The notes beneath the pieces are model-generated. The model had not been told where the DNA came from, did no database searches, and was given only the letters and a program-made list of their open reading frames with translations. Positions 11,234 through 49,894 of a stretch of 64,000 bases of DNA are shown here, piece by piece (position 1 is the first letter of the stretch; every line of letters begins with the position of its first letter). The stretch lies in the NCBI RefSeq assembly GCF_024700885.2, contig NZ_CP117016.1. One strand, 5' to 3'. Source of the stretch: Escherichia coli (lineage in GTDB: Bacteria > Pseudomonadota > Gammaproteobacteria > Enterobacterales > Enterobacteriaceae). The translations under genes and the position numbers were made by a program.

Positions 11234-11288
11234 GGTAATGCTGCCAACTTACTGATTTAGTGTATGATGGTGATTTTAAGGTGCTTGC

Positions 11289-11564
11289 GTGGCTTCCATT
11301 TCCATCAGATGTCCTTCCTGCTCCGCTACTGAAGGCGTGGTGCGTAACGGCAAAAGCACTGCCGGACATCAGCGCTATCTCTGCTCTCATTGCCGTAAAA
11401 CATGGCAACTACAGTTCACTTACACCGCCTCTCAGCCCGGTACGCACCAGAAAATCATTGATATGGCCATGAATGGCGTCGGATGTCGCGCCAGTGCACG
11501 CATTATGGGCGTTGGCCTCAACACGGTTTTACGTCACTTAAAAAACTCAGGTCGCAGTCGGTAA
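11289..11564 (+). CDS. insA: IS1 InsA
   Basis: [40 protein letters not shown]... Confidence 0.9.
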
Positions 11565-11986
11565 CCTCGCGCATACAACCGGGCAGTGATGTGATTGTCT
11601 GCGCTGAAATGGACGAACAGTGGGGCTACGTCGGTGCTAAATCACGTCAGCGCTGGCTGTTTTACGCGTATGACAGGATACGGAGGACGGTTGTGGCGCA
11701 CGTCTTCGGTGAACGCACTCTGGCCACACTGGAGCGTCTTCTGAGCCTGCTGTCGGCCTTTGAGGTCGTGGTATAGATGACGGATGGCTGGCCGCTGTAT
11801 GAATCACGCCTGAAGGGAAAGCTGCACGTTATCAGCAAGCGTTACACTCAGCGCATTGAGCGACATAATCTGAATCTGAGACAACATCTGGCAAGGCTGG
11901 GACGGAAGTCACTGTCGTTCTCAAAATCGGTGGAGCTGCATGACAAGGTCATCGGGCATTATCTGAACATAAAACACTATCAGTAA
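11483..11986 (+). pseudogene. insB: IS1 InsB frame with premature stop (TAG at 11774-11776)
   Basis: Copy 2 reads ...VVIWMTDGW (TGG); copy 1 reads ...VVV(stop)MTDGW (TAG). Confidence 0.85.
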
Positions 11987-12071
11987 GTTGGAGTCATTAC
12001 CTCCTCCCGAACTCAAAGCTATCATACAGATAATTACTGGTTAACCCTATATAGGGCATTTTAAAGTGTTG

Positions 12072-12408
12072 TGATCTTACCCAGCAATAGTGGACACGCG
12101 GCTAAGTGAGTAAACTCTCAGTCAGAGGTGACTCACAAGACAAAACAGTTTCAACCAGTAAAAAAACGTAAACACCATTCGCATGAATTTCGTAGTTAAG
12201 ATCTGAAGCTTGCAGAATGCATCGGTGTTACTGCCGGAGTCCGTGAACTTAGTCTGCATGAATCACCACAGCTTTACATCTGTCGCAGTAAACAGCAAAA
12301 TCAGCAAACTTACTTAATTATATCGAGTGCGATTACAATCGCTGGCGATGGTACAGTTGGTGTGGCGGTCTCAGTCCGGAACAATTTGAAAATCAGAATC
12401 TCACTTAA
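12072..12408 (+). mobile_element. IS3 remnant with large internal deletion (left end and orfA 5' joined to orfB 3' end; right IR missing)
   Basis: TGATCTTACCCAGCAATAGTGGACACGCGGCTAAGTGAGTAAACTCTCAGTCAGAGGTGACTCACA then ...[33 protein letters not shown] tail. Confidence 0.7.
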
Positions 12409-12746
12409 AACGGCATCCATTTTACAAAAGATGGCCGTCTGTGTATTTATAATGAATACCTTCTACATGTTTAGAGTGCATAATCCACGACAAGGCGATA
12501 TCCTAAAAATTAGCTAGCAGGCAACTTTGATGGCATAGATAATGTTTTTAGTAAAAAAGAGTTGACTTAATATAATACAGCCTCTTCCTACATAAGAAGG
12601 AATGTGCTCACAAAAAAAAACATTAGTCTGCTTCCTGTTCTTACAATAATCAGTATTATGTATTTTATTTATATAGCAAAATATGCTTGTTACACCTGTC
12701 ATAATTAGGCATGGTAAAATTATTGACTGAACCCTGGGGGAGAAAG

Positions 12747-13004
12747 ATGCACAGTGATTATTATAATATGGTTTTTGGTGAAAAATTGGCCAATATTTTA
12801 TATGAAGCTAACTCTCAATTTTTTTACGAGAGAAATGTCATAGAAGAGGCAGTCAACGCTTTATTCTGTGAGCGTGAAATAATAAACAACAAGAACATAA
12901 TAAAGAAGCTGATGTTCTTTTTGTCAGATGTTAATCACACCAAGAAAGATGTTGTTCAGAGCGCACTTAATATTATCATTGACATTACATCAGGTGATAT
13001 TTGA
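12747..13004 (+). CDS. Hypothetical protein (85 aa), AT-rich
   Basis: ORF with GGGGGAG RBS; no recognisable family. Confidence 0.3.
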   Translation: MHSDYYNMVFGEKLANILYEANSQFFYERNVIEEAVNALFCEREIINNKNIIKKLMFFLSDVNHTKKDVVQSALNIIIDITSGDI

Positions 13005-13264
13005 GATTTTACATAAAAGATAATCTCTCAAGGAGTCTTATCTGAAAACGAAATATATAGTCCCTCTCGTTTTGTAATATCGATTGGCTTTGTTGAATCG
13101 GTTACGTACCCCGGAGCCGGTCATATTTTCAGGTAATACACACGCTTTCAGACATTTCGGCTTTCGTCATTTTGGTATCATGGGCATAGCTTCTGCTACC
13201 TGACCATCATAATCACGCAGCTTCAGTGAAGCAGTGACCACCTGTTTAACCCGGTGTATCGTTA

Positions 13265-47021: not shown

Positions 47022-47040
47022 TGTGACTGTCTCCTGTCTA

Positions 47041-47757
47041 CTACAGTTTAAATGACACACCAATGCGATAACTGTTTTCCGATAAATTATCTCTGCCGTT
47101 GTAAACACCCTGACGGTCCAGGTAGTCATATTCTATGTATGGCGTAATATCGGGCGTCATATGGTATTGTAGAACAAATGCATTTTCCGTCGCCCATTTC
47201 TTATGGTTTGCATAGCGATAATCGTTCTGTTTGCTGTATAGCGTCGTTTGCCATGCGAAGGTGAAATCACTATTAATATGGTAAGTGACATATCCATCCC
47301 AACGATGAACGTTATCACGAGACATATCACCGGATAAGTCTTGTTGTCGGTAAGCTTTCCAGTCGTAACGATAGCGAATGCCAAAATTAAGATCTTTTGT
47401 CGCGTCCCAGGACAGTTTTACGTAGGGTCCGTAGCGTGTGCCGTTGCTGCTAAAATGCGTTAACATTCCCGGGCGCACCGTCCATTGATCATCAAGTTTA
47501 ATCGCGTAATTAACTTCAACCTGAACATCATTGAGTGCGGCATTTTCCTTTTTATTATCATGAATGGTATTCCAGGTATTACTTTCCATACTTGCCCACC
47601 ATCCATTTTGCCATCCCTCACTGACTTTGAGTCGAGTCTCATAGGCGTGGCTTCCACTACGATATCCACCACGTACGTCCAGTGTCGCAGCCTGAGAAAT
47701 TAATGGTGACGAAAAGCACAGTAATAATACGCCAGAAAGTATTTTAACCTTTTTCAT
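47041..47757 (-). CDS. nanC: N-acetylneuraminic acid outer-membrane channel, KdgM family (238 aa)
   Basis: MKKVKILSGVLLLCFSSPLISQAATLDVRGGYRSG... Confidence 0.9.
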   Translation of the reverse strand: MKKVKILSGVLLLCFSSPLISQAATLDVRGGYRSGSHAYETRLKVSEGWQNGWWASMESNTWNTIHDNKKENAALNDVQVEVNYAIKLDDQWTVRPGMLTHFSSNGTRYGPYVKLSWDATKDLNFGIRYRYDWKAYRQQDLSGDMSRDNVHRWDGYVTYHINSDFTFAWQTTLYSKQNDYRYANHKKWATENAFVLQYHMTPDITPYIEYDYLDRQGVYNGRDNLSENSYRIGVSFKL

Positions 47758-49126
47758 AAATTTCACTCATTTGTAGGATACAGAAAGCAATACAAAGCCC
47801 GCATAAACAATTAGCATTTATGTTGTGTAATATTTTTTTGCCAGGCTTATAGTGTCTTTGGCAACCGGTAGCTGTATTTTATGTTTTTTGTATAAGGTCT
47901 CCTGTGAAAAATCTCTTTTCACATTATTTAAATAAACAGAGAGCCAGATTAAATACCTGAGTATAAAATCTCTTCTGATGTTTAATTGATTTGAATGTTC
48001 GTAAGCTATATCACTTACTCAATCCATTTTACCCAGAGTCATAAAATAGAGTGTCTGTTGATCTCATTTTCATATTCCTTTCAGACTGAAGTGCGTTTTC
48101 ATCACCCGATGAGAAAGAACTGAAGTGATGTTTGCCATAGATTGCGAGATGCCCTGTCTCATTGACTATCTTGGTGCACCTTTATACCTGTTATACCAGA
48201 TCAAAAATCACGCAATCCATACAACAAAACCAGATTTGCAATTCGTGTCACAAAATGTGTCGATCTTTTTCTAAGAGGAAGATGCCATGTGAAGCCAGAC
48301 GAACACTTGCGGTGGTCTTCAAAAACTAAAGATCTTCGTTTAACTATTTGTTTTATAAATAATTTATTTAGAGTCTAAACAAGGGAAGCTTTGCAAGCTA
48401 ACTCAGTGAGCTTGGTGAAAATCAGTGTTTACCCGCCATCAGGCTGAGCATAATTCTCATCATGAAATATGTTTCCTGGTTTGTGGCTTGTAACTGGTCA
48501 CTCCTGAAGTCGATCTGGAGAGGCTTGTTGATGTTGGTGTTTTCAGGGTGATGCCTCACTTAGTTTGTTTGCCGTATCGCCCGGCGAACACCTGTGATTG
48601 AGGAAGGTTTAAGTCGTAGTGACCAAAGCCATATTTACCAGCGAATGTAGATGAAAAAATCGTTTCCTGCTTTCCCCCATATCTCCATGATAAAAAGGAA
48701 TGTAACAATCTCATGGCCTAAACTGACGAGCCAGCCAGGAATAATCGCTAGGGACCTAAGAATTAGCATGATAATAGCCACTAAGAAATTACTGCGTTCC
48801 ATGAAATAGCCATTTTGTGGCAAATGGAGTTGACTAATAATGTCATATGTGAGGCGGCTAGTTGAACGAATATTAAATTTTGCTGAATTTTTTATGTTGA
48901 TTTTACTTGTTACAGAACATATCACATGATATATAGATAAGATTAGTTGCATTAATGATGAGAGTTATTATTAGATTCGTATCCGATTGATAAATATATA
49001 AAGGTACATAGCATGCAAGAGCATAGCGTTTGTATGGCAACGTTATTATAATTAACTGTTGCTACTCCATTTAAGTTCACTCAGAAGAACTGGTCCACTT
49101 ACGTAAGTTATTAAGCAAACGTTCGA
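47758..49126. promoter_or_regulatory. nanC upstream / nanC-fimB-type intergenic regulatory region, ended by the IS1 insertion
   Basis: About 1.37 kb AT-rich non-coding stretch upstream of nanC, where the long nanC-fimB intergenic region lies in E. coli. Confidence 0.5.
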
Positions 49127-49181
49127 GGTGATGCTGCCAACTTACTGATTTAGTGTATGATGGTGTTTTTGAGGTGCTCCA

Positions 49182-49457
49182 GTGGCTTCTGTTTCTATCA
49201 GCTGTCCCTCCTGTTCAGCTACTGACGGGGTGGTGCGTAACGGCAAAAGCACCGCCGGACATCAGCGCTATCTCTGCTCTCACTGCCGTAAAACATGGCA
49301 ACTGCAGTTCACTTACACCGCTTCTCAACCCGGTACGCACCAGAAAATCATTGATATGGCCATGAATGGCGTTGGATGCCGGGCAACTGCCCGCATTATG
49401 GGCGTTGGCCTCAACACGATTTTACGTCACTTAAAAAACTCAGGCCGCAGTCGGTAA
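49182..49457 (+). CDS. insA: IS1 InsA
   Basis: [40 protein letters not shown]... Confidence 0.9.
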
Positions 49458-49879
49458 CCTCGCGCATACAGCCGGGCAGTGACGTCATCGTCTGCGCGGA
49501 AATGGACGAACAGTGGGGCTATGTCGGGGCTAAATCGCGCCAGCGCTGGCTGTTTTACGCGTATGACAGTCTCCGGAAGACGGTTGTTGCGCACGTATTC
49601 GGTGAACGCACTATGGCGACGCTGGGGCGTCTTATGAGCCTGCTGTCACCCTTTGACGTGGTGATATGGATGACGGATGGCTGGCCGCTGTATGAATCCC
49701 GCCTGAAGGGAAAGCTGCACGTAATCAGCAAGCGATATACGCAGCGAATTGAGCGGCATAACCTGAATCTGAGGCAGCACCTGGCACGGCTGGGACGGAA
49801 GTCGCTGTCGTTCTCAAAATCGGTGGAGCTGCATGACAAAGTCATCGGGCATTATCTGAACATAAAACACTATCAATAA
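49376..49879 (+). CDS. insB: IS1 InsB frame (167 aa), intact in this copy
   Basis: ...[21 protein letters not shown]...[16 protein letters not shown]... Confidence 0.85.
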
Positions 49880-49894
49880 GTTGGAGTCATTACC

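Follow-up and report, generated by a model that had tools for sequence, protein, structure and literature searches.

Two unrelated IS1 copies in an Escherichia coli leuX-fim island probably mark separate adjacent deletions and not the ends of one mobile unit

Passenger DNA held between two directly repeated insertion sequences (IS) is known from Tn9, in which direct IS1 copies flank cat, and, as a much larger block, from the pgm locus of Yersinia pestis, where 102 kb between direct IS100 copies is lost by homologous recombination. An arrangement of the same outline occurs in the 64-kb stretch of Escherichia coli DNA analyzed here (the window), which differs by one mismatch and one indel from E. 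coli MLI114 (NZ_CP117013.1; Mali, human stool) and in which two IS1 copies in direct orientation enclose about 37 kb of a leuX-fim mosaic island. Tn9, however, is about 2.6 kb long, has near-identical IS1 copies and 9-bp duplications and occurs in many contexts, and the window has none of these traits; the IS100 copies of pgm are essentially identical and single-IS derivatives of that locus are readily found, whereas the IS1 copies of the window are 9% diverged and no derivative was seen. We instead consider it probable, at roughly 85%, that the two copies are unrelated, that each marks an IS1-associated adjacent deletion in the island, and that the two were joined via separate histories.

The individual parts of the locus have closer counterparts. 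The left copy resembles the IS1F of K-12 (insA7/insB7 pseudogene, in KpLE2), which adjoins fecIR, has 73 mismatches to the consensus and showed essentially no transposition in a 2025 study (PMC12428005). Classical IS1 adjacent deletions and the IS-adjacent deletions of the long-term evolution experiment (PMC11708052) are like the window in having an end-point on an IS terminus, a retained IS and no duplication, and missing target duplications are typically put down to adjacent deletions or to recombination between IS copies (PMC11708052). At the fim locus, an IS1A-type copy replaces fim genes in the window as it does in the fim::IS1 allele of enteroaggregative E. coli (EAEC) 042, enteroaggregative haemorrhagic E. 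coli and strain ST648, an allele with 171 bp of fimH that has already been described (PMC8281228). Both IS1 copies, the mode of deletion and the fim alleles nearby thus belong to known kinds, and RefSeq genomes already contain this exact sequence in annotated form.

The two IS1 copies and the truncated genes that adjoin them are as follows.

10619-11233, minus strand: virK', the 3' 615 bp of the 951-bp virK, ending exactly at the left IS1F terminus; the MLI114 annotation lacks the N-terminus
11234-12001, plus strand: IS1F-type IS1; insA at 11289-11564, insB stopped by a TAG at 11774-11776
49127-49894, plus strand: IS1A-type IS1; insA at 49182-49457 and insB at 49376-49879, both intact, annotated as IS1A family transposase
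49895-52765, plus strand: fimD' (3' ~893 of 2637 bp; 49895-50787), fimF, fimG and fimH, promoterless type 1 fimbrial remnants

Each copy is 768 bp long, the repeat finder pairs them, and they bracket 37,125 bp (12002-49126; 38.7 kb with the IS1 copies included), so that the coordinates, full length, direct orientation and approximate spacing reported in the initial annotation are borne out. The outer neighbours of the pair are truncated genes, virK' on the left and fimD' on the right. Both copies have the features of the IS1 family, namely a length of about 768 bp, imperfect terminal inverted repeats (~23-30 bp, GGTRATG...) that are complete in both and align between ends and between copies, and insA followed by insB' in a -1 frameshift layout with an A6C motif. 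This layout is intact in the right copy, where TTAAAAAACTC is present and a programmed frameshift is annotated; the left copy has the same layout with the TAG stop in insB, and therefore belongs to the family although its transposase gene is dead. Set against the K-12 isoforms, the right copy agrees at 767/768 positions with IS1A, which is the active consensus type, while the left matches K-12 IS1F at 763 of 768 positions and the copy of strain D3 at 764, and its stop codon is the same one that makes K-12 insB7 a pseudogene. Family membership rests on this >99% identity to IS1F and IS1A and is unaffected by the missing duplication described below. Compared with each other, the two copies agree at only 699/768 positions (91.0%), and their longest identical stretch is 44 bp; the two belong to distinct isoforms and are unrelated elements.

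Neither copy has the 8-9 bp target duplication that the initial annotation proposed to look for at each IS1. No duplication of 8-10 bp was found at the left copy (flanks CGATTTTTG outer, TCCTCCCGA inner), at the right copy (AACGTTCGA inner, CGAAAAACG outer), or across the outer or inner flank pairs. Similarly, a duplication around the whole unit, as in Tn9, was not found, the outer flanks CGATTTTTG and CGAAAAACG being different. The lack of a duplication at either copy or across the pair rules out both a pair of simple insertions and a single composite insertion, and duplications are lacking because each copy adjoins a deletion. A 6-bp match, CGAAAA, shared by the virK matches and the fimD flank was rejected as a chance extension; intact virK reads TGGAAA there.

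The deletion at the left copy can be read from strains that carry the same IS1F in an undeleted setting. The inner flank (TCCTCCCGA...) is common to the window, D3, 98197 and E24377A, and to the right of IS1F these three strains match the window, with IS fragments followed by a YmgB/AriR gene, then a phytase-like esterase, IS66 and the CP4-like module. On the outer side of their IS1F lies ykiE-fecIRABCDE, as in K-12, whose copy likewise adjoins ykiE-fecI and differs in its right flank, which is yjhU; in the window, the fec side is gone and virK' stands in its place. Further left on the same molecule, 98197 and E24377A carry DUF2254-BCCT-IS3-lpxM-virK-capU-shf-IS3/group II intron, which corresponds to the left flank of the window but with virK intact, and the intact virK of 98197, GTEN_23 and E24377A runs past the breakpoint of the window with TGGAAACAAAA.... 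The undeleted order is lpxM-virK-capU-shf-IS3/group II intron-fecEDCBARI-ykiE-IS1F, and in colinear alignments 14,605 bp of it, measured against 98197, are absent from the window, or 17,055 bp when measured against E24377A, in which an additional IS66 is present. The missing segment begins inside virK, ends on base 1 of the IS1F terminal repeat and comprises the virK 5' end, capU, shf and fecIRABCDE. The left IS1 is not an insertion into virK; the junction is a deletion anchored on the IS1F terminus. The surroundings are dense in IS remnants: an IS3-family (IS600-like) element lies at 8290-9429 between the BCCT transporter gene and lpxM, and clustered IS3 and IS5 fragments follow IS1F on its inner side, at 12002-13700.

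The right junction is likewise an IS-plus-deletion scar. When the flanks are mapped onto K-12, the inner flank of IS1A proves to be the nanC-fimB intergenic region, ending ~87 bp short of fimB, and fimD nt 1745 is where the outer flank begins, so that IS1A has replaced ~5.97 kb containing fimB, fimE, fimA, fimI, fimC and fimD nt 1-1744. Two simple, independent insertions of IS1 into virK and fimD, with nothing else altered, would account for the truncation of both adjoining genes at the IS1 ends, but we regard this as close to untenable, given that neither copy has a target duplication, that the left inner flank is the sequence following IS1F in fec-carrying strains and not virK, and that the right inner flank is nanC-fimB intergenic sequence and not fimD. 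The description of the two copies as cutting virK and the fim locus consequently stands for the truncation of both genes, although each copy sits at a multi-kb deletion junction and does not plainly interrupt a gene. In E24377A and four other genomes, an internal deletion of 9 bp leaves the IS1 at fim with a length of 759 bp (E24377A locus ~23101-23859), and its flanks are 100% identical to those of the window; these are two length variants of one junction allele.

To assess how the two junctions are distributed, synthetic junction queries with 500 bp per flank were run against 5,426 complete E. coli genomes. The left junction (virK', IS1F and inner flank) was found in 32 genomes and the right junction (nanC side, IS1 and fimD') in 13 genomes from several other lineages, including enterotoxigenic E. 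coli E24377A, O169:H41 F6326-C1, O27:H7 B4103-1 and F9792, and only three genomes, MLI114, CUVET21-37 and WWCOL-315, have both. E24377A (phylogroup B1, sequence type ST1132; PMC8281228) has the right junction and shares both the interior and the direct IS1F...IS1A pair with the window, but its virK-fec region is intact, and in F9792 the spacing from virK to the fim junction equals that of E24377A. Most genomes with the left junction of the window carry the alternative fim allele, in which IS1A is inverted and a 171-bp fimH remnant lies between nanC and gntP. This allele occurs in 309/5,426 genomes across phylogroups, including EAEC 042, ST648 (IS1 at 39787-40554 of the ST648 locus) and 200164; ST648 and 200164 have the left junction together with this allele. 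Its breakpoints correspond to window positions 48949 and 52595, the nanC-side one being 177 bp further in, and both these breakpoints and the inverted relation of IS1F to IS1A set it apart from the E24377A-type allele of the window, which keeps fimD'FGH. Strain 200164 was evaluated as the closest relative with both junctions because of its 100% identical left flank, and was rejected for its inverted IS1A/171-bp fimH allele and a change of ancestry at ~23 kb.

The distribution of nucleotide differences also points to separate origins for the two sides. The left 11.2 kb of the window is nearly identical to genomes with the left junction. Relative to E24377A, the window has 2-5 single-nucleotide polymorphisms (SNPs) per kb left of 11.2 kb, 0-1 SNP per kb across 11.2-59 kb, except in the Ag43 repeats and at the 9-bp fim IS1 deletion, and 11-31 SNPs per kb right of 59 kb; the whole bracketed interval is thus colinear with E24377A at 0-1 SNP per kb. 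In comparison with 200164 there are zero SNPs to ~23 kb and then 10-50 per kb, and in comparison with ST648 there are 3-70 per kb over the interior and five differences within IS1F, the first at 11389. The switch in ancestry lies between 10397/10795 and 11389, that is, at or within the 5' end of IS1F. These patterns suggest that the chromosome is a recombinant whose left flank, with virK'/IS1F, resembles the ST648 group and whose sequence from IS1F to ~59 kb is E24377A-like. On the most economical reading, a virK'/IS1F chromosome would have taken up an E24377A-like tract of ~48 kb by homologous recombination, with the left crossover in IS1F, and the imported tract would have carried the interior, IS1A, fimD'FGH, gntP and uxuAB. 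On either ancestry reading, whether by this route or by a second deletion to the same nucleotide, the two IS1 junctions did not arise together. The independent arrival of the two copies, which the initial annotation had named as the observation that would count against a common unit, is therefore what the genomes show (junctions in 32 versus 13, three with both), though the copies came with adjacent deletions and lack duplications of their own.

The same data bear on the proposal that the interval is a Tn9-like IS1 composite transposon, inserted or movable as one 38.7-kb unit. The pair has the requisite parts: both IS1 copies are full length and in direct orientation, the outer ends (the left inverted repeat of IS1F and the right inverted repeat of IS1A) are intact, and the right copy has intact genes for InsA and InsAB'. 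However, the outer flanks CGATTTTTG and CGAAAAACG carry no duplication, and virK and fimD are neighbours in no genome: E24377A has ~17 kb between virK and IS1F, with fimD' abutting the fim IS1. Moreover, genomes without the left junction have the interior at this very locus and with these inner flanks. No plasmid carries the block (0 found with at least 80% of the interior); the plasmid matches are to the widespread CP4-like/Ag43 module only, at 33-37% coverage. The right junction occurs at the fim locus only, as a single copy per genome in all 13 carriers, and there is therefore no sign of transposition or amplification. In addition, Chandler, Clerget and Galas reportedly found in 1982 that the transposition frequency of IS1-flanked transposons drops steeply with size. 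Arrival as a composite transposon is thus very improbable, and of that suggestion there remain the intact outer ends, the one intact transposase gene and a conceivable movement, while arrival as a unit falls with the missing duplication across the pair.

We also evaluated whether the pair acts as a homologous-recombination cassette, with the 37 kb recurrently deleted or amplified in the manner of the IS100-flanked pgm locus. The direct orientation of the copies fits this, as does an IS1A-type conversion tract at ~452-714 in the left IS1 of CUVET21-37 and WWCOL-315. These two strains carry an identical IS1F/IS1A chimera as their left IS1 (~34774-35541 of the CUVET21-37 locus; 1605-2372 of the WWCOL-315 locus), with F-type sites at 4-447 (except 40 and 45), A-type sites at 452-714 and an F-type site at 750. 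Judged from these diagnostic sites, gene conversion between IS1 types occurs in this lineage, with any IS1A-type copy in the genome as a potential donor, and the tract removes the insB stop, so that the dead IS1F appears to have been revived. The near-identical direct repeats over hundreds of base pairs seen at pgm are not present in the window, where identity is 91% and no identical run exceeds 44 bp. In E. coli with working mismatch repair, such divergence makes RecA-dependent exchange rarer by orders of magnitude. Even the strains with the converted, more similar IS1 keep the block: their chimera matches their own fim IS1A at 727/768 positions (94.7%), with a 196-bp identical run. Their interior is ~7.9 kb shorter through internal deletions of Ag43 and its neighbours, with an ISEc10 insertion, while both IS1 junctions are kept, and erosion of the interior in these sister strains is piecemeal.

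A deletion derivative with a single IS1 and without 12002-49126, proposed in the initial annotation as a check, was found as virK'-IS1-fimD' in 0/5,426 genomes. The counterpart expected from an E24377A-type arrangement, ykiE-IS1-fimD', was found once, in the O19:H7 strain 730V1, where the whole interval is gone (IS1 at 20501-21268 of the 730V1 locus), which shows that its loss is tolerated and in that respect favours the recombination cassette. However, 730V1 is not the product of a crossover within the pair: its IS1 is of the IS1F type throughout, with 68 F-type diagnostic sites against one A-type, and it is joined to fimD at a point 18 bp upstream of the breakpoint in the window. As the predicted single-IS1 derivative (fecI-ykiE-IS1-fimD'), it was rejected on both grounds, and its diagnostic sites mark it instead as an independent deletion anchored on the right IS1F terminus and not an IS1F x IS1A crossover. 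A recurrently used recombination cassette is accordingly an unlikely account of the locus. Because of the 9% divergence, the identical runs of at most 44 bp, the 38.7-kb span and the dead transposase gene of one copy, the pair would serve poorly as a latent substrate, whether for deletion by way of RecA or for transposition in the manner of Tn9. The idea that the pair is a substrate for deletion or amplification therefore keeps its geometry, the observed conversion and the tolerated loss of the interval, and is set back by the low identity and the lack of derivatives; loss or mobilization as a unit via the pair is possible in principle, and conceivable as first proposed, but none is realised in the comparative data, which contain no loss via the pair, no plasmid and only a single-copy right junction.

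Adjacent deletion of both sides agrees with the junctions. Each deletion would have been produced by IS1 transposase acting on an IS1 end, that is, by intramolecular transposition, and would have removed one copy of the target duplication, so that no duplications would be seen. Since the IS1F transposase gene is dead, the transposase for the IS1F deletion would have been supplied in trans by IS1A-type copies, and in this the left junction would differ from the classical and experimental cases of adjacent deletion. Several points weigh against this account. The adjacent-deletion mechanism is deduced from the geometry of the end-points, and homologous recombination of IS1F with a second, since-lost IS1F-type copy in virK could possibly give the same product. 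IS1 transposase prefers to act in cis, and the action in trans on the ends of an IS1F whose own transposase is dead is an assumption. The absence of a deletion derivative is weak negative evidence, the direct pair being present in only 13 genomes. Finally, two independent deletions to the same virK/IS1F nucleotide, in place of a single origin followed by recombination, are conceivable but less likely.

A further and more tentative proposal, which we think possible but on balance doubtful when its parts are taken jointly, extends the adjacent-deletion reading. IS1F termini may repeatedly serve as deletion end-points, on the left in the virK' group of 32 genomes, on the right in 730V1, and in the right flank of K-12; the body of IS1F may have acted as portable homology for the splice of an E24377A-like tract of ~48 kb, with the fim-deletion allele and the type III restriction-modification/SNF2 genes on it, into an ST648-like genome; and IS1 deletions may end preferentially in fimD at ~nt 1726-1744, where two independent end-points lie 18 bp apart.

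The bracketed interval contains the features listed below, with defence genes scored by PADLOC and other gene names taken from the MLI114 RefSeq annotation.

Start of the interval, before 13740: IS fragments, then a YmgB/AriR gene
13740-15113: phytase-like esterase
~15.3-17.7 kb: degenerate IS66
25406-28327 and ~31.2-32.1 kb: CP4-like module, with antigen 43 (Ag43) and YeeU/CbtA, respectively
33707-36598, plus strand: DrmD-like SNF2 protein (PADLOC DrmD, 1.3e-199)
36604-39741, plus strand: type III methyltransferase, 1045 aa (PADLOC MTase_III, E=0)
39744-43124, plus strand: type III restriction enzyme/helicase, 1126 aa (PADLOC REase_III, E=0)
43786-44715, minus strand: HNH endonuclease, annotated as a phosphorothioated-DNA-binding restriction endonuclease (PADLOC HNH, 7.7e-25; mREase_IV, 9.8e-8)
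45285-47766, minus strand: nanS' (partial), nanM and nanC; K-12 has the same conserved leuX-fim island end

The SNF2 and type III restriction-modification (R-M) genes form a candidate defence operon at 33707-43124 on the plus strand, after which a 100-aa open reading frame on the minus strand (43171-43473) gave no PADLOC match. The E24377A-type tract has this operon whole; in ST648 and 200164 it is partly decayed, with the methyltransferase split in ST648 and the HNH gene truncated in both. An exact 106-nt direct repeat occurs at 3432-3537 and 17603-17708 of the window; the second copy adjoins the degenerate IS66 directly at its end, and the first, which sits between a TetR gene and an alcohol dehydrogenase fragment, may be a solo remnant of an IS66 end. 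There are no tRNA genes within the 64-kb window, and the attachment site of the island therefore lies outside it. In 98197, the virK-fec-IS1F-CP4-like island adjoins a tRNA-Ser gene and ghrA, while in the window and E24377A it adjoins nanSMC-fim, and the island is therefore at two chromosomal sites in different strains.

Taken together, the look of a 37-kb IS1 composite or deletable cassette is misleading at this locus, which is better described as two deletion scars joined by recombination, and the arrangement is one of ordinary IS-driven island erosion. With two separate scars, neither the CP4-like module nor the type III R-M/SNF2 operon should therefore be treated as the cargo of a mobile unit. 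For the strain, the consequences are the loss of the ferric-citrate uptake operon, capU and shf, a truncated virK, and an inability to make type 1 fimbriae because everything from fimB to fimD nt 1744 is gone. More broadly, the locus shows a leuX-fim island reshaped by IS1 and by exchange between lineages.

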